DNA of 63,769 nt from Candidatus Omnitrophota bacterium (GTDB lineage Bacteria > Omnitrophota > Gorgyraeia > Zapsychrales > Zapsychraceae), in assembly GCA_030637405.1 (NCBI GenBank), contig DAOWGP010000040.1, positions 1-63,769 on the forward strand, given 5' to 3'. Positions 15,922 to 36,452 of the stretch are shown piece after piece; position 1 is the stretch's first letter, and each line of letters opens with the position of its first letter. The notes beneath the pieces are model-generated. The model did not search any database, had not been told where the DNA came from, and saw only the letters and a program-made list of their open reading frames with translations. Both the position numbers and the translations under genes were made by a program.

Positions 15922-16419
15922 TTAGCGGAAGAACGGCGTTTTTGAACGTAAAGCAACCCTTTCCTTTAATGCCGCTTTTGCCATCTGCCCATCCGACATC
16001 CGCTTGCTTGCTGTAATATCGATAATCACGACATCTTTCAAATATTGAAAAGAAAGATCGGAAATGTATTGTGCCATGATCCGTTTTTTAAAACGGTTCC
16101 GCCGGATGATCCTGCCGGCATCGCGCCCTTTATTCCTCCAAATATACGAAACAGGGCCGGTCAACGGGATATAAAAATGGACGGCGCTCCCGTCGGGGCC
16201 CTCAATGACCCGCACATTTTCGGCCGCCCGCAGTTCATTGACCATCCCTAAAAGAGCCCTACGCGCTTCCCGTCTTGCCGCGACCGAATCGTTATAATGA
16301 ACCCAGGCCTTGTTCCCGACGATATAGGTTGAATAGATCCCCGCGAAGACAACCGTAGAAATGAGAGCCGTAACCAGCGCCTCGACAAGAGTAAATGCTT
16401 TTTTATTATGTGTCCTCAT
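15922..16419 (-). CDS. GspJ/PilW-like minor pseudopilin with prepilin-type N-terminal methylation motif
   Basis: The start is moved to the ATG at 16419 (ATGA overlap with the upstream stop). The N-terminus reads MRTHNKKAFTLVEALVTALISTVVFAG, followed by ARREARRALLGMVNELRAA. Confidence 0.65.
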   Translation of the reverse strand: MRTHNKKAFTLVEALVTALISTVVFAGIYSTYIVGNKAWVHYNDSVAARREARRALLGMVNELRAAENVRVIEGPDGSAVHFYIPLTGPVSYIWRNKGRDAGRIIRRNRFKKRIMAQYISDLSFQYLKDVVIIDITASKRMSDGQMAKAALKERVALRSKTPFFR

Positions 16420-16802
16420 TTTGCGACCTTTGTTATGAACGTGACGCCATGGCTTCTCAATTTCCGCGTCCAATTCACCGTTACCTGCATATCGAGTAAA
16501 TTGCTGCTTGGTTCCGAAAAGATAATATCGATGGTTTCACCGGGAAGCGTGTTCAATCCTTGGTCCACGGCCCACTCTTCCCAATTCATGACCAGAATAC
16601 TGCCGATCGAGTCGCTTCTTTGAGCTTCTTCCAGAACGTACTCGGCATGCGATGTCGCGACGGTCATATCCCATGCCAGCTGCGATGAGATCATCGAAGT
16701 CACATACAATAAAAGCACCCCGCCGATCGCGACAGCCAAAATAAACACGGCAATAAGCAGCTCAACAAAAGTAAATCCTTTATTATTGCGTTTAAGAGAC
16801 AT
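16416..16802 (-). CDS. GspI/PilV-like minor pseudopilin with prepilin-type N-terminal cleavage/methylation motif
   Basis: 128 aa. The N-terminus reads KRNNKGFTFVELLIAVFILAVAIGGVLL. Confidence 0.75.
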   Translation of the reverse strand: MSLKRNNKGFTFVELLIAVFILAVAIGGVLLLYVTSMISSQLAWDMTVATSHAEYVLEEAQRSDSIGSILVMNWEEWAVDQGLNTLPGETIDIIFSEPSSNLLDMQVTVNWTRKLRSHGVTFITKVAK

Positions 16803-17142: not shown

Positions 17143-20100
17143 TTATTTTTCTCCTAAACCTGCAAACCAATTGCGTATATCCTGCCAGAGTTTTTTAACC
17201 CCGTCCTGAAAGGCTTCCAAGATATCCTTTTCCTCTTCTTCGATGACCTCTTCAGTAGCAAGAAGCCCTTCAACATCCTCGGGCTCTGTCTGTGCGTCCA
17301 GAAGCTTCTTCCTGAGATCCGCGTATGTTTCAACTTCCAGATCCGTCATCTCTCCTTCTATGAGTTCCTCAATTTTCACTTCGTCTTCTTTTGTCAATAC
17401 CTGAAGGACTTCTCCTCCATCAGATACCGATAATGTCGTATCTATCAATCCTTCACTACCAGTGGTTGTTCTGCTAGTGGTGGCTGTTCTGGTACTGGTC
17501 GTCGTTCTGGTGCTGGCTGTACTCGTTACACTAGTAGAATCATTTGATTTGGTTTTGGTCTTGCCGGAATTGCTTCGGCTGGAACCCGAGCTTCCACCGC
17601 CGCCGGAACTGGAGCTGCTTTTATTCGATTTTTCTTTCGTATGGCTGGATCCCGTAGCCGCTGTTTCTTCGACACTTGCAGGCTCTACGATCGCCGTATT
17701 TAAAACAGTTGGCTCTACGGTTGTTCCGGATGATTGTTTTGTTGACGTTTCTTCCTCCTGCGGTTCAGGGGTCACATGACATGCATTGTTATACCAATAG
17801 TGACCGTTCTTCTCGCAGTCTGGTTTGTTTTTACAAAGCGAAATACTATCGGCGCATGTCAATTCCGGTTCCGGTTCTACCTGAGGTTCTATGACCGGTT
17901 CGGGACCGGCATTACAGGTATTGTCATACCAGAAATATCTATTATTTTCACAGTCCGGTTTATTCTTGCAATACAGAATATTTTCCGCGCATGTCGGTTC
18001 CGGTTCAGGGGCAAGATGGCACGTATCATCATACCAGTAGCGCCCAGCGATGATACAGTCCGTCGAGGTTAAACAATACTGGATCCCGTCGGCACATGTC
18101 GGCTCCGGTTCCGGTACCGGTTCCGGCTCGATACAATTCGGCCACTCCGCGCTGGGTTTCGCGCAGGGATTTCCGCAGGAATCTGTACCACCTGTAAGCG
18201 GCGTCTGTCCGCATTCGATCAACGGAAGATCGCACCATGTCGGAACGCAGGCCTCAGACTCCGGTTCAGGATCCGGTACTACGGGCTCCTGAACAAGGTT
18301 GCATGTGTTGTTGTACCAATAATAACCATTCTCAGCGCAATCGCCCGAGGTTAAACAATATAAGATATCATCAGCACAGGTCGATGACGGTTCACGTTGT
18401 GCGTGGCAGGCATTGTCGTACCAGAAAAAAGCCCGTCCTAGACATTCAACTTCAGTTAAACAGTACTGAATACCGTCAATACACGTCGGTTCAGACTCGG
18501 GGTCCACATTGCATATCCCGTCATACCAGAAATACTCATTCTCGGTACAATCCGTTTCTGTCTCGCAATATTGAATATCTGCCGCGCACGTCGGATCCTC
18601 TCCAACCGTATCATATTCAATGGCTCCTATGTCCCAGACTTCCCCGCGGTTTTTCTTCTTATAATCTAGGCTTGATTTACCAACTAACGTAAGGCCTTTC
18701 CTTACTGCGGGGCTAGTTGATTTTAAACTAGCGTTAAATTCATTTCCCGTGAAATATTTAATAGCCCCATCCAAAAGTTCAGGATCCTCGCATATGGAAT
18801 GTTCCTTGCCATTACAATCTGTCGCGAAATTTTTAGTATTCCAAATAACGGAATAATCATCCTCCATATCAATATCTCCGCAAGGACCATCGCCATTTCC
18901 TGTTATCCCTCCGGGCCAATAAAGCGCTGATTTGTCATAACCGTCATTAAACTCCGTTCCGCCTAAATAGATATTGTTTCTTGAAATAATTCTCTCAGAT
19001 CCATCGCATGTACTTCCGCCCGAAGTTGTCATCGTATCGCCATTGCTCGTTATCGTCGAATTATAGATCTCGATTTGATATCCCGTACGGAGCCTCATCG
19101 CAAGAGCGCTCCCGGCAGCCCGGCAATTATTAAAAGTCGATGTTTTCCATGTAATAGGATTATCAGCGAAATACGCACAATTCCCGATTAAAAGAGAATT
19201 TTCAATGAGGGCGTCTGATGCTATTTTGACCTGATTACCGGCATTTCCTTCAAATAGCGAACGTTTGATCGTGATCGATCCGTTTCCACTGTGATATAAC
19301 AGGTCAAGACCGTCAGATACGTTATGACTGATATCACACTCGTTAAAGATCCAGTCTCCATTCGTTTTCTCTGTTCCCAATCCATCACCGTAACCGCCTT
19401 GGTCCTGACTATAACAGTTATAAGGCTGCTTTCCAGGATAGGTTTCCCCGCATCCGTTAAATTGAATATCCGTTCGATTGAAGAGTATTGTTCCGGAATT
19501 AGACGATGTTGTTGATCCAAGATCACCGTCCCATCCAACAAAAGAATTGGCAACAATTTTTGAATCCTCGATGGTCCAGTCTTTGATCCGGGCCGCCCAC
19601 ACCCCTTTAAAAGCCATACCATGAATATTAACGTTTTTAATTAAAACACTCTCGCTATCTTTCCCCGTTAATCCTATAACTCCCCATTCTCCAAAAGGAG
19701 GATAATCTCTATTACATGGATTTGGTCCATGCTCTTGACAATCCGAATGATCCGTCACTTCCAAACATTGAACTTCCACATTATCGCTGCCATTCAAATT
19801 CAATATCCTGGTGACCCTTTCTGTACCCCATAATTGAGGCGGGTTAGCACATCCGGTATCCCAACCCTTCCCCAATATACGGGTAGGATGTGCCGGGTCC
19901 GGTCCGGAAGGAATAGAACGCATATAACACTCGTAGGCTGCCGCGGGATAACACTTGCTGGTATTAGACGCGCCATCACCGATCATATATTCCGCATTGT
20001 CTGAACCGTCAATAATGAGAGTATCGCCGCCAACCATTACGGTAGAATGGCCGATCGGCGAAATAGCCCAAAATGGATGCGAGAAAGCACAATTCTGACC

Positions 20101-20271
20101 TAAGCCCGAACCAGAATAAGCCGCATCAGCAAGCCCCGTGCACTCGCTGCTGCTGCCGCCGTCCTTTCGAACATAGTAAATCGCGCTCCAAGAGGGAAAA
20201 ACAATGAGAAAACAAAAACCCAAAGCAAGAATATTAGTAAAAACGCCGCGTTTCAAAATATGTCTGTCCAC
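17143..20271 (-). CDS. Secreted 1042-aa right-handed beta-helix protein with six 4-Cys repeat modules, a Ser/Thr-rich spacer and an acidic C-terminal tail
   Basis: GTG start preceded by AAGGGGG. Signal peptide …VFPSWSA/IYYV. The beta-helix part shows characteristic features (IYYVRKDGGSSSECTG…, repeated N/D-x-G turns). Repeats of C-x6-C-x5-C-x11-C occupy aa 561-831, separated by PEPEP linkers. Aa 842-940 are S/T/G-rich. Confidence 0.8.
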   Translation of the reverse strand: MDRHILKRGVFTNILALGFCFLIVFPSWSAIYYVRKDGGSSSECTGLADAAYSGSGLGQNCAFSHPFWAISPIGHSTVMVGGDTLIIDGSDNAEYMIGDGASNTSKCYPAAAYECYMRSIPSGPDPAHPTRILGKGWDTGCANPPQLWGTERVTRILNLNGSDNVEVQCLEVTDHSDCQEHGPNPCNRDYPPFGEWGVIGLTGKDSESVLIKNVNIHGMAFKGVWAARIKDWTIEDSKIVANSFVGWDGDLGSTTSSNSGTILFNRTDIQFNGCGETYPGKQPYNCYSQDQGGYGDGLGTEKTNGDWIFNECDISHNVSDGLDLLYHSGNGSITIKRSLFEGNAGNQVKIASDALIENSLLIGNCAYFADNPITWKTSTFNNCRAAGSALAMRLRTGYQIEIYNSTITSNGDTMTTSGGSTCDGSERIISRNNIYLGGTEFNDGYDKSALYWPGGITGNGDGPCGDIDMEDDYSVIWNTKNFATDCNGKEHSICEDPELLDGAIKYFTGNEFNASLKSTSPAVRKGLTLVGKSSLDYKKKNRGEVWDIGAIEYDTVGEDPTCAADIQYCETETDCTENEYFWYDGICNVDPESEPTCIDGIQYCLTEVECLGRAFFWYDNACHAQREPSSTCADDILYCLTSGDCAENGYYWYNNTCNLVQEPVVPDPEPESEACVPTWCDLPLIECGQTPLTGGTDSCGNPCAKPSAEWPNCIEPEPVPEPEPTCADGIQYCLTSTDCIIAGRYWYDDTCHLAPEPEPTCAENILYCKNKPDCENNRYFWYDNTCNAGPEPVIEPQVEPEPELTCADSISLCKNKPDCEKNGHYWYNNACHVTPEPQEEETSTKQSSGTTVEPTVLNTAIVEPASVEETAATGSSHTKEKSNKSSSSSGGGGSSGSSRSNSGKTKTKSNDSTSVTSTASTRTTTSTRTATTSRTTTGSEGLIDTTLSVSDGGEVLQVLTKEDEVKIEELIEGEMTDLEVETYADLRKKLLDAQTEPEDVEGLLATEEVIEEEEKDILEAFQDGVKKLWQDIRNWFAGLGEK

Positions 20272-20363
20272 TTTATTTGCCCCCTTATTAAATTGTTTGA
20301 ACCGCCGAACTGTCTCTCATTGTACACAGATCCAACATTATAATCAAATGCCGTGACAAGTTC

Positions 20364-20394
20364 AAAAAAAAACCCACTCTTTGACACAAAGAAT
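20364..20394 (-). terminator. Candidate intrinsic terminator / expression platform in the leader of the 1042-aa gene
   Basis: Minus strand ATTCTTTG-TGT-CAAAGAGT forms an 8-bp stem with one G-U pair, followed by GGG and T9. Its 3' arm GAGTGG is also complementary to the 5' arm (CCACTC) of the upstream GAAA hairpin. Confidence 0.4.
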
Positions 20395-20420
20395 AGGCTC
20401 GCACATTCCACGGGAATCCC

Positions 20421-20557
20421 GCTGTTTGGCAACTGGCTGCCCTATACCTTTCGACCGAGGGCCCTATAGCTTTGTCGGTATAAATTCTATACACCGTACT
20501 TGAATCAAAAGATTCAAGTAGTCCCACCCTTTCGAGTGGTTTACCTTGATCAACAGC
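20421..20557 (-). promoter_or_regulatory. Candidate c-di-GMP-I (GEMM-I)-like riboswitch aptamer with an atypical two-hairpin insertion
   Basis: Minus-strand RNA: GCUGUU…AAGGUAAACCACUCGAAAGGGUGGGAC-[UACUUGAAUCUUUUGAUUCAAGUA][CGGUGUAUAGAAUUUAUACCG]-ACAAAGCUAUAGGGCC…UAUAGGGCAGCC…AACAGC. The GAAA-capped hairpin and its flanks resemble the GEMM-I core (GGCAAACC-stem-GAAA-stem-GGGACGCAAAGCC) as I recall it. It is closed by a 6-bp GCUGUU/AACAGC helix. Confidence 0.4.
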
Positions 20558-20578
20558 ACATCGTATACATCCTTAGGA

Positions 20579-20607
20579 AGTATGCCACACGGCTATCTGT
20601 ACGTCAA
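20579..20607 (-). promoter_or_regulatory. Sigma70-type promoter candidate for the riboswitch-led transcript
   Basis: The minus strand reads TTGACG (20607-20602), a 17-nt spacer, then CATACT (20584-20579). This is just upstream of the candidate aptamer. Confidence 0.4.
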
Positions 20608-20772
20608 GGTAATTGGCAAAGAAATTCACTTCTTTCTAAAAACTTTTTTCAGCTTCCTTAGATAACATACACACTGGCTGATAAAAGGCACATACAAAGC
20701 AAATAATAAGCATATAGCCGGACGCGCAAAGAATACCCATAAAAGTTTTTCTTAAAATATTCCTTAGCTTCC

Positions 20773-21642
20773 TTAAATACACCCGCTTAAAAAAGCCCTT
20801 CGGCCCATTAACCAATACCCTTTAACGATTTCGTTCAAAATAAATCGCTTTTGTTCACCGTTCAAAGAATCAGCTTTCACATCAAGAAAGTCCTGAAATA
20901 TTCTAATAGAAGTTGAGTCGATCATATCCCCTTGATTCGATAAATTATCTTTATGCCATCGGCGGTTAACCAAAACTTCGTCTATGTATCCGACCTTTAA
21001 ATTATCAATCGTATTGATCGTTCGGGCATAAACTTCCCGCACGGGATAACGGGAATCCATAAAACCTTTCTCTAAAGCAAAATGCCGTGTCATCAGCATG
21101 GTCGATGGATGTATAAAACCGTCATGCAAAAAAGCATCAAAAAGAGATGTTGTATAGATCCTTCGGCGGCCGTCTTTTTGACATGGCAGTTCTTGAAAAC
21201 GTTTCATGGGCCGGGTAAAAGATCCCACAATCACTCCCCGCTCATCAAATTCGCTAAAATCAGATATAATAAAATCCAACTCGGGATACTTCTCAAGAAA
21301 ACTAACCTGTTCCTGTATTTTATTCGGTTCAAAAATATCATCGGCGTCTAACAAGCAAATATAGTGGCCTGTCGAACTCATGATCCCGGCATTTCGGGCG
21401 GCAATAATGCCTTTCTTAGTTTTATTGATATAATTGATCCGGTCTAAATAAGGCTTTAAAACTTCATACGTATTATCGCTCGACATCCCATCGACAACAA
21501 CGATCTCGATATTTTTATACGTTTGAGAAAGAACGCTCTTGATCGCGTCTTCAATATAACAACCGAAATTGTAAGTCGGGATTATAACGCTGACTTTGAG
21601 TTCTTTTTCATCTTCCATCCTAAAAGCCTCTTTTTTGTGCAA
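20773..21642 (-). CDS. Family 2 glycosyltransferase
   Basis: 289 aa with VSVIIPTYNFGCYIEDAIKSVLSQTY…VVVDGMSSDNT and LLDADD. An alternative start at 21618 (MEDEKELKV) lies just after the upstream stop. Confidence 0.8.
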   Translation of the reverse strand: MHKKEAFRMEDEKELKVSVIIPTYNFGCYIEDAIKSVLSQTYKNIEIVVVDGMSSDNTYEVLKPYLDRINYINKTKKGIIAARNAGIMSSTGHYICLLDADDIFEPNKIQEQVSFLEKYPELDFIISDFSEFDERGVIVGSFTRPMKRFQELPCQKDGRRRIYTTSLFDAFLHDGFIHPSTMLMTRHFALEKGFMDSRYPVREVYARTINTIDNLKVGYIDEVLVNRRWHKDNLSNQGDMIDSTSIRIFQDFLDVKADSLNGEQKRFILNEIVKGYWLMGRRAFLSGCI

Positions 21643-35048: not shown

Positions 35049-36452
35049 TTAAATTTCTAAAGGCACTTCTGAATCGACATATTTGTACTTGCCGGACTTC
35101 GTGCGCGCAATGCTGTCGACATATTCAATGGAAATATTAATGGAGTTCCTGAAATAGTTCCCGACGCGTTTTTTGATCTGAGATTCATCTAAATTGACCG
35201 CCTTGTCCTTCTTGACCAAACGGATAATAAGATTTTTCATGTCTTTCTGGTAAAATTGAACGTGATTGATCCCTTCATTCACCCCTTCGATAATCAGCGG
35301 CACTCCGGACATCACATTGAAATAACCCTTTTCCGTCACGATCAGGTCCTTCGCCCGCGAGCCCGTAACCTCAAGAATAGGCGATTGACGCCCGCACGCG
35401 CACGTCTCTTTTTTAATGCGTCCGTAATCACCCATCGCATAGCGGATCAACGGCATTGAATGGTTTAAAAGGGTTGTCCCTACTATTTCCCCAACCTCCC
35501 CGGGCGCGCACGGCTTACCATCTTTAATAATTTCGGTGATCCCCATTTCCTCATTAAGGTGAAGGCTATGATGGTCGCATTCCGAGGCAAAAGTAATATA
35601 TTCATACATCGCGTATAATTCGAAACAAGGGCAGCCAAACGCGCTCTTAACAAGGTCCCGGTGCTCAGGATAGACTTTCTCCGCGCGTAAAATAACCGAT
35701 TCGGGACGGATCTCATACGACTTGTTCTTTAATAAGTACTGCGCGAATATGGAAATGATCGAAGGATAAGCGTGTATATGATCGGGCTTGAAATCTTCTA
35801 ACAGGCGGCAAAGTTCCGGCAGTGTTTCCTTATTCATAAGCCCTGTATTAAGTTTTAATATTTTTCCCGTCGAGTCCAGTTGATAAAGATTTTTTAAGTC
35901 AATTTCTCCGGTTTCATAATCAAACGGCGGGCCCATATAGACCGACTTATCGTGAAACCGGCATCCCGCCCAGTTATAGTGCCGCCAAATCACCGCGTGG
36001 ACAAACGAAACAACGGCCTGGTCTACTAATATTTTGAATGGTGTTCCTGTTGACCCGCTGGTTTTATTTGTTTTTGGATTAAACTGTTCATAGCCGGATG
36101 CTCTGAAATCCTCCGGCTGATCCCGGACTTTATATTTATCGACGATCGGGATCTTTCTAAGATCTTCAACGGTTCTTATCTCACCAGGATCAATGCCCTC
36201 GCGATCAAACAGGTCCTTATAATAGGGGACATTTTTATAGCTATATCTGATCATTTCAGAGAGCTTTTCCTGTTGATAACTAGCTATTTTCTCAGCGGAA
36301 AACCATTGGCTTTTATTTAGAAAATCGTAATTCTCAATAAATTTTTCCTTCATAAGATAGTTTATATAGTATTTATGATAGGCCGGAAAAGCGCCTAAGA
36401 GACGCTGCAGAGCACGCTTAATGAAAAAAGATAGTTTTTTAAGAAACAACAT
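35049..36452 (-). CDS. PaaK / F390 synthetase / CapK-like adenylate-forming enzyme (paralog 2)
   Basis: 467 aa with KTSGSTGTPFKIL and SGKYKYV. Same architecture as 33626-35029. Confidence 0.7.
   Translation of the reverse strand: MLFLKKLSFFIKRALQRLLGAFPAYHKYYINYLMKEKFIENYDFLNKSQWFSAEKIASYQQEKLSEMIRYSYKNVPYYKDLFDREGIDPGEIRTVEDLRKIPIVDKYKVRDQPEDFRASGYEQFNPKTNKTSGSTGTPFKILVDQAVVSFVHAVIWRHYNWAGCRFHDKSVYMGPPFDYETGEIDLKNLYQLDSTGKILKLNTGLMNKETLPELCRLLEDFKPDHIHAYPSIISIFAQYLLKNKSYEIRPESVILRAEKVYPEHRDLVKSAFGCPCFELYAMYEYITFASECDHHSLHLNEEMGITEIIKDGKPCAPGEVGEIVGTTLLNHSMPLIRYAMGDYGRIKKETCACGRQSPILEVTGSRAKDLIVTEKGYFNVMSGVPLIIEGVNEGINHVQFYQKDMKNLIIRLVKKDKAVNLDESQIKKRVGNYFRNSINISIEYVDSIARTKSGKYKYVDSEVPLEI

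Follow-up and report, generated by a model that had tools for sequence, protein, structure and literature searches.

The minus strand of a 63,769-nucleotide (nt) stretch from a Candidatus Omnitrophota bacterium (contig DAOWGP010000040.1, assembly GCA_030637405.1), analysed here over its whole length and called the window, contains an intergenic region bounded by the stop codon of a family-2 glycosyltransferase gene (20773) and by the GTG start (20271) of a gene for a protein of 1042 amino acids (aa). On this one strand a promoter, an aptamer, a linker hairpin, an intrinsic terminator with a tract of nine U residues (U9) and the gene follow one another, which is the position of a 5'-leader cis-regulatory element. 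The first-pass annotation had described here a GEMM-I-like riboswitch for cyclic diguanosine monophosphate (c-di-GMP), interrupted by two extra hairpins, in a leader of about 500 nt; that length holds for the whole intergenic region, whereas the part that is transcribed, running from the promoter as far as the GTG start codon, measures about 300 nt. The element is, with near certainty, a true homologue of the c-di-GMP-I (GEMM-I) riboswitch, and in its expanded form it is a new structural variant of GEMM-I in an Omnitrophota clade, with expansions recurring at two fixed sites. Its parts are given below in transcript order, core nucleotides being numbered as in the Vibrio cholerae Vc2 aptamer (P, paired helix; J, joining segment; H, inserted hairpin).

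20579..20607, minus strand: sigma-70-type promoter, TTGACG (20607..20602), 17-nt spacer and CATACT (20584..20579), with a TG upstream of the -10 element (promoter scan).
20421..20557, minus strand: complete aptamer of the GEMM-I (c-di-GMP-I) class; the expansion accounts for 45 of its 137 nt (RF03167 match, clade model, pair counts).
20557..20552 with 20426..20421, minus strand: P1, GCUGUU with AACAGC, enclosing the aptamer and covarying in relatives.
20524..20545, minus strand: G20 equivalent (20545), 5' halves of the P2 foot G21 and U22 (20544..20543), AAA and the P2 hairpin (position-by-position parse).
20539..20524, minus strand: P2 hairpin CCACUC-GAAA-GGGUGG with a GNRA tetraloop (P2 pairs covary across relatives).
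20521..20523, minus strand: conserved GAC, its C at 20521 corresponding to Vc2 C44 (from alignment with the Rfam consensus).
20476..20520, minus strand: 45-nt lineage-specific expansion made of two abutting closed hairpins, H1 and H2 (clean indel relative to L097 and L099; fold z-score).
20520..20497, minus strand: H1, UACUUGAAUC-UUUU-GAUUCAAGUA, a perfect 10-base-pair (bp) stem with a UUUU loop (perfect 24-nt palindrome).
20496..20476, minus strand: H2, CGGUGUA-UAGAAUU-UAUACCG, a 7-bp stem with one G-U pair and a 7-nt loop (fold).
20463..20475, minus strand: A45-C46 closing the P2 base, A47 (20473), J2/3 and the P3 5' strand ACAAAGCUAUAGG (parse, duplex prediction, folds of partial transcripts).
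20428..20471, minus strand: P3 helix (20471..20431), AG bulge with the G83 equivalent (20437) and GCC with the C92 equivalent (20428); P3 pairs are conserved or compensated.
20405..20420, minus strand: linker hairpin GGGAUUCC-CGU-GGAAU between aptamer and terminator (predicted folds; a similar hairpin stands in the closest relative, L097).
20364..20400, minus strand: intrinsic terminator, stem CCUAUUCUUUG / CAAAGAGUGGG (20400..20370), loop UGU and U9 (20372..20364) (terminator scan).

The promoter, P1, P2, the GAAA hairpin, H1, H2, the junction and the terminator thus all lie on the minus strand at the positions originally assigned to them. Inside P1, the order from 5' to 3' is AAGGUAAACC, the P2 hairpin, GAC, H1, H2 and then ACAAAGCUAUAGGG, beginning at 20475, through to GGGCAGCCAGUUGCC, and all parts of the three-helix GEMM-I structure can be drawn in the window, namely P1, P2 with its GNRA tetraloop and AAA/GAC internal loop, and P3 with its AG bulge. 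The 221-nt leader folds better than its shuffles (z = -4.0). In relatives, a TTGACA-17/18-(C/T)A(C/T)ACT promoter stands at the equivalent place, about 25-30 nt upstream of the aptamer. A 79-aa open reading frame with a GTG start (20288-20527, minus strand) overlaps aptamer, terminator and leader and is almost certainly no gene.

The 45-nt insertion interrupts just one phosphodiester bond, the one that would join the C44 equivalent (20521) to nucleotide 45 (20475) on the 3' side of the P2 internal loop, with no linker nucleotides at either flank or between the two hairpins, and through it the conserved AAA/GAC internal loop becomes a four-way junction. The extra helices had originally been placed at the ligand-binding junction; the insertion site lies in the P2 internal loop, one base pair from the junction and ligand pocket and not within the junction strand. 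As had been proposed, removal of the two hairpins restores GGGAC-ACAAAGC; in a multiple alignment with the homologous loci L097 and L099 the 45 nt form one clean indel between invariant GGGAC and ACAAAGC. The insert by itself folds at -19.2 kcal/mol as compared to -4.9 +/- 2.3 kcal/mol for its shuffles (z = -6.3; 0/200 shuffles as good), and L087, L088 and L089, three further independent assemblies from separate samples and a separate NCBI genome, carry the identical insert. Its presence in four independent assemblies, the window included, rules out an assembly artefact. An origin by local duplication of the J1/2 segment was also considered and rejected, as the similarity of UUGAUCAAGGUA to the H1 3' arm is at chance level (75/300 shuffles score as well).

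Homology to GEMM-I is carried by covariance models and by relatives. A focused Rfam scan of 20200-20800 gave one meaningful match, to RF03167 (c-di-GMP-I-GGC, clan CL00126), with 24.8 bits and E = 0.0014 over the full model length; a match to RF01051 scored below it and was dropped as a within-clan overlap. In the RF03167 alignment, 64 nt of the window stand where the model has 19, and the low score is attributed to the insert. Relatives were collected as loci around homologues from species-representative genomes, by a pattern scan of metagenomes and by exact protein look-up. A genome-contig search with the single 1042-aa protein returned nothing, whereas a search with an alignment found homologous loci; the metagenome pattern scan gave canonical-length relatives only, plus one chance match (L080), and a pattern scan of viral contigs for inserts at the C44 site gave one chance match, within coding sequence. 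Twenty loci with 21 aptamers (L001, L003-L006, L008, L009, L011-L013, L081, L082, L084, L086, L094-L099) carry c-di-GMP-I or c-di-GMP-I-GGC matches above cut-off, with 43-72 bits; all of them read in the same direction as the homologous beta-helix gene and lie 100-350 nt ahead of it. The lowest scores (43-45 bits) belong to L003 and L005, whose aptamers are expanded in P3 and are matched only in part. In other Omnitrophota, 19 normal-length aptamers lie upstream of homologous beta-helix genes, and all of those scanned with Rfam exceed the cut-off, with 59.5-72 bits. Without its 45 nt, the window aptamer is 86-89% identical to those of L097, L099 and L001, which score 63-66 bits.

A clade covariance model (R1) was built from 12 canonical-length relatives with the canonical GEMM-I structure imposed and tested by pair counts, since the RNAalifold consensus of the clade alignment was partly non-canonical and was set aside. 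Searched with this model, the window yields a full-length match of 59.7 bits (E about 1e-13). Across 23 clade aptamers, including that of the window, the canonical structure is 99.5% paired with compensatory changes at nine pairs, values reached by none of 500 shuffles, and slid registers drop to 25-47% paired. P1 covaries as well, being CUAUUG/CAAUAG in L098 and UUCUG/CAGAA in L012. The first-pass annotation had suggested to check the element with covariance models and by covariation in homologous leaders. The first of these checks came out in two parts, the clade model and the full-model RF03167 match speaking for the assignment and the RF03167 score staying below its cut-off, while the second was borne out by the nine compensatory pairs and by P1. 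The GAAA hairpin and the (G/A)CAAAGC junction, ACAAAGC in the window, are shared with the homologous leaders and the model match is significant. Together, the clan match, the relatives above cut-off and the clade-model score bear out a GEMM-I-type aptamer with two extra helices in the leader of a beta-helix/pseudopilin module. Elsewhere in the window, a weak clade-model match at 36267-36358 on the minus strand (13.5 bits, E about 0.2, 29% GC), without P2 and core motifs, is probably due to chance.

All canonical core nucleotides are present in the window, with G20 at 20545, A47 at 20473, C92 at 20428, C44 at 20521 and G83 at 20437, and it keeps G21-C46, U22-A45 (compensated from C-G), AAA, the GAAA loop, GAC and the AG bulge. 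Positions 20, 47 and 92 are those that contact the ligand in the Vc2 crystal structures, and because these nucleotides as well as C44 and G83 are all canonical, c-di-GMP is the ligand expected from the sequence. The earlier suggestion of an altered ligand specificity thus finds no support, positions 20, 47 and 92 being the canonical G, A and C. Two tandem GEMM-I aptamers (1097-1188 and 1279-1373) precede the homologous beta-helix gene in L094, both without the usual C at the C92 equivalent (GUUGC-G-GCAG and GUUGC-A-CAG), which may reflect a change in ligand recognition or a shift in register.

The terminator offers a conserved partner for the aptamer core. In its 5' arm and loop lies the conserved switching sequence, CCUAUUCUUUGUGUC (20397..20383), a near-perfect complement of the core GAC-ACAAAG-CU-AUAGG, and by duplex prediction the segment 20463..20475 doubles as the antiterminator strand, being complementary to the terminator 5' arm. 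Within this arm, CCUAUUCUUUGUG(UC) is kept across leaders whose linkers are otherwise unalignable, the best duplex between aptamer and terminator arm falls on GACACAAAGCUAUAGG in most relatives, and L006 covaries, with GCAAAAC in the core and GUUUUGC in the terminator region. When transcripts ending after the terminator 5' arm are folded, the antiterminator is the minimum-energy fold in the window, L097, L001, L004, L095 and L082; in full-length transcripts the terminator fold is found instead in the window, L001, L004, L095 and L082, whereas L097 keeps the antiterminator. H1 and H2 of the window branch off the antiterminator helix as they do off P2, and hence the module is compatible with both states. 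It had been proposed that GAGUGG of the terminator 3' arm pairs alternatively with CCACUC of P2. The window sequence does allow this pairing, but in relatives the two segments do not change in concert (L008 has a P2 of CCACGU with a GGAAUAGG arm), and as a conserved switch it is ruled out, the conserved pairing being that of the terminator 5' arm with the aptamer core. Between terminator and gene, the leaders of L081, L084, L001/L083 and L086 hold repeated hairpin modules: in L081 and L084 a AAUGUUUCGUUUUGUAAUGUCAAAUAAUUCAAAACGAAACAG module is found in two copies, and downstream of the terminators there is also a TTATTGTCGGC...GCCGACAATA hairpin.

The window is not the only locus with such an expansion. 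The clade model exposed further expanded aptamers which Rfam misses or under-scores, and three other lineages carry two-domain expansions at the C44 site or in the P3 bulge, so that with the window four lineages and two fixed sites are involved. In the two species of L003 (499-550) and L005 (2236-2287), the P3 bulge carries an identical 52-nt insert of two helices, placed between the U and the A of CUAU|AGGG. Between these two loci, 0/52 insert positions and 0/94 core positions are substituted as compared to 28/229 leader positions outside the aptamer (P about 0.001 for an unchanged insert by chance), which implies purifying constraint on this expansion, as on the core. L019 has a different, unrelated 58-nt two-helix insert at the same P3 site. 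The largest expansion is found in L007, where a 162-nt insert of two closed domains stands at exactly the bond used in the window (GAC|...|GC) and a further 187-nt insert at the P3 site. The resulting aptamer of about 450 nt (L007:1913-2362; fold -216 kcal/mol, z = -8.6) has lost no core element, retains the conserved terminator and is missed by Rfam at gathering thresholds. In minimum-energy folds, the inserts of the window, L003/L005, L019 and the C44 site of L007 each form two closed abutting domains with 0-1 linker nucleotides. The inserts of different lineages share no sequence and vary in size from 45 to 187 nt, and the two at the C44 site look independent, because their cores resemble those of two different insert-free aptamers, L097 for the window and L006 for L007. 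In L019, the bulge with G83 reads UG instead of AG.

The gene downstream of the switch opens a conserved operon: after the beta-helix gene come two genes whose products have prepilin-type methylation motifs, and then one for a product of about 375 aa, a gene order shared by L095 and L098. The relevant genes of the window are the following.

17143..20271, minus strand: regulated gene of 1042 aa, GTG start at 20271, Shine-Dalgarno sequence AAGGGGG at 20286..20280 (open reading frame list).
16416-16802 and 15922-16473, 3' of the 1042-aa gene: two genes with prepilin-type N-terminal methylation motifs (Pfam N_methyl matches).

The 1042-aa protein has an N-terminal hydrophobic segment resembling a signal peptide and gave no match in Pfam, NCBIfam or PDB sequence searches; its homologues, many of them in Candidatus Omnitrophota, are annotated as right-handed beta-helix repeat proteins and carry PF13229. 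Between the pilin-like genes and the 375-aa gene, the window contains a gene of the 23S rRNA intervening-sequence protein (IVP) family (PF05635; 15463-15837, minus strand), which is not present in the equivalent operons of L095 and L098. A BLAST search against plasmids gave no match.

Taken as a whole, the reading which we favour, and hold to be probable with fair but limited confidence, is that of a GEMM-I homologue that tolerates its expansion and acts as a transcriptional OFF switch; for continued function and the OFF direction, taken jointly, the confidence is a shade lower and still better than even. Stacked one upon the other, the two hairpins would form a self-contained side arm and leave the c-di-GMP pocket functional. 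Two abutting helices entering at one bond would create a four-way junction, in which the new helices stack on each other and the host helix remains continuous, and this would account for the pairing of inserted helices; the same two-helix solution appears to have arisen independently again, at the C44 site (L007) and in the P3 bulge (L003/L005, L019 and L007). Without ligand, the terminator 5' arm is predicted to pair with the aptamer core as an antiterminator and the operon would be read through, while with c-di-GMP bound the core would be locked in the aptamer, the terminator hairpin with its U9 would form and transcription would stop before the operon. It is from the complementarity of the terminator 5' arm to the aptamer core that the OFF switch is predicted. 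A wider proposal, that Omnitrophota GEMM-I RNAs form a structural subclass in which coaxial helix pairs are grafted 3' of C44 and in the P3 bulge as functional parts of the sensor, appears doubtful. Such grafts, reaching about 350 extra nt in L007, might adjust affinity or the kinetics of folding, or bring in a second factor, and if the proposal is true the RNA of the window would be a working c-di-GMP pocket at a four-way junction and not a tolerated accident.

Several observations weigh against the tolerated-expansion OFF switch. A whole-window Rfam scan gave no match either at gathering thresholds or at E <= 0.05, and in the focused scan no Rfam family reached its gathering score, RF03167 with 24.8 bits standing against a cut-off of 59, so that the element falls outside formal Rfam membership. 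The minimum-energy fold misses the canonical P3 and P2-base pairing (-42.2 vs -48.2 kcal/mol by nearest-neighbour energies), and does the same with the insert removed, and the OFF direction is one that we infer from complementarity and folding. A second sigma-70-like promoter, TTGAAC-17-TATAAT (10/12; 20337-20365, minus strand), extends from the end of the U-tract and lies upstream of the start codon; it could bypass the switch and allow riboswitch-independent transcription, and is not conserved in L097 or L099. The insert-bearing genomes differ by about 0.2% only and are therefore uninformative on selection, no signal of which is seen for the window insert, and the closest relative, L097, is without the insert, which may thus be recent. 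Lastly, the insert starts directly 3' of the C44 equivalent, C44 and G83 both being present in the window. In Vc2, C44 flips out and pairs with G83 in a neighbouring helix, and disruption of this pair abolishes ligand binding, as does G83C (PMC11705072). An insert adjoining C44 therefore makes a disabled aptamer a serious possibility, in which a recent neutral or harmful insertion blocks the C44-G83 pair or the docking of P2 and P3 and leaves a ligand-blind attenuator with a fixed balance of terminator and antiterminator, expression being supplied, it may be, by the downstream promoter-like site. This explanation, with which the position of the insert, the scores below all Rfam cut-offs, the insert-free L097, the near-identical insert-bearing genomes and the TTGAAC-17-TATAAT site after the terminator would all agree, and for which the perfect stem and 31% GC of the insert fit a young sequence, is nevertheless considered unlikely, though by no means negligible. 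The conserved core nucleotides, helices, promoter and switching sequence are all intact, two exactly closed helices without linkers are the least disturbance that a host helix could receive, the independent lineage L007 has an insert of equal topology at the same bond with core and terminator kept, and the comparable expansion of L003/L005 is as conserved as the core.

Two further explanations concern the origin and use of the hairpins. They could have added a function, as a site for a protein or a second RNA, as a folding-kinetics or pause module, or through a change in affinity or specificity, giving a second input or another cyclic dinucleotide as ligand. Expansions do recur at two fixed sites in four lineages, one of them under purifying constraint, H1 is a perfect 24-nt palindrome of the kind recognised by dimeric proteins, and the insert adjoins the pocket and lies in the switching helix. 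However, the inserts of the different lineages have no sequence in common and range from 45 to 187 nt, which argues against a common specific partner, G20, A47 and C92 are the canonical c-di-GMP set, and no Rfam motif matches the insert in the focused scan, so that added function is regarded as quite improbable. Least probable of all, if only slightly more so, is a small mobile or palindromic remnant, resembling repetitive extragenic palindromic (REP) sequences or miniature inverted-repeat transposable elements (MITEs), that landed in the leader by chance and is unrelated to riboswitch function. The insert is indeed AT-rich relative to its surroundings (GC 31% vs 44% for the window) and palindromic, and other leaders of the clade have repeated hairpin modules downstream of their terminators. 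Nevertheless, no second copy exists in the 63.8-kb window or in about 100 fetched loci, even with three mismatches or by short-word BLAST, the insert junctions show neither a target-site duplication nor terminal inverted repeats, the G-U pair of H2 means that this hairpin pairs only in the sense-strand RNA, and the insert resembles other parts of the leader no more than expected by chance.

With an expansion tolerated in an OFF switch as the preferred reading, the locus illustrates how an intact-looking c-di-GMP riboswitch is hidden from routine Rfam annotation by a single 45-nt insertion. Larger expansions, as in L007 and L019, are missed too, so that counts of the c-di-GMP regulon in Omnitrophota and comparable uncultured phyla are probably too low. 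To our knowledge, little is known in general about signalling in this phylum, and the reading predicts c-di-GMP repression of a conserved operon for secreted beta-helix and pilin-like proteins. If the RNA still binds its ligand, it marks a permissive site in GEMM-I and a natural two-helix graft that preserves the host helix, which would be of use in engineering riboswitches and in tracing how aptamers expand over evolutionary time.

Among known systems, the element is closest to the c-di-GMP-I class (RF01051, type Vibrio cholerae Vc2), with which it shares the P1, P2 with GNRA tetraloop and P3 architecture, the core GG(C/U)AAAC...GAAA...GGGAC-(G/A)CAAAGC...AGCC...GCC, the equivalents of G20, A47, C92, C44 and G83, the 5'-leader position with an intrinsic terminator as expression platform, and the association with genes for surface, secreted and pilus-like proteins. 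It differs by its 45-nt two-hairpin module, which replaces the 3x3 internal loop of the class by a four-way junction, by a score below the gathering cut-off because of this insert, and by a U-A instead of a C-G pair in the P2 foot, which is compensated. Furthermore, the GAAA loop is present but the distal P3 (CCCUCGGUCGAAAGGUAUAGGG) is without an obvious canonical 11-nt tetraloop receptor, of the form CCUAAG...UAUGG that is seen in the RF01051 consensus, L006 and L013.

The GGC variant (RF03167) resembles the shape of this clade in that its model includes P1 and a short P3, and hence it is the best-scoring model for the window; it is also the top model, above cut-off, for L004, L009, L011, L012, L013, L097 and the second aptamer of L094. 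However, its consensus has G at position 47 (GACGCGAAgC), whereas the window and all clade members have A (ACAAAGC or GCAAAGC). The name GGC refers to positions 20, 47 and 92; as these are G, A and C in the window, and as 24.8 bits stand against a cut-off of 59, membership in the GGC variant is ruled out, and A47 in the window and the whole clade points to the canonical ligand-contact set. The cyclic AMP-GMP (c-AMP-GMP or cGAMP, GEMM-Ib) riboswitches have the same fold and belong to the same Rfam clan, with A at position 20 as their signature; the window has G there, at 20545, and thus is not assigned to this type. Within the clade, A20 is found in L082:2175-2277 on the minus strand (AAAAGUAAAC) and in L019:2184-2349 (ACUAGUAAAC), this nucleotide being the specificity signature of cGAMP-sensing GEMM-Ib riboswitches.

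Limited literature searches found no relevant report of insertions in GEMM-I or of riboswitches in Omnitrophota. Lineage-specific helix expansions are represented in other RNAs by the variable P3 extensions of thiamine pyrophosphate (TPP) riboswitches and by the peripheral extensions of cobalamin riboswitches and RNase P. As in those RNAs, closed helices of variable sequence and length are added at loops and bulges of an unchanged core; in contrast to them, the expanded RNA here is a GEMM-I aptamer, one of the sites lies one base pair from the ligand pocket beside an essential tertiary nucleotide, and the helices come as abutting pairs.

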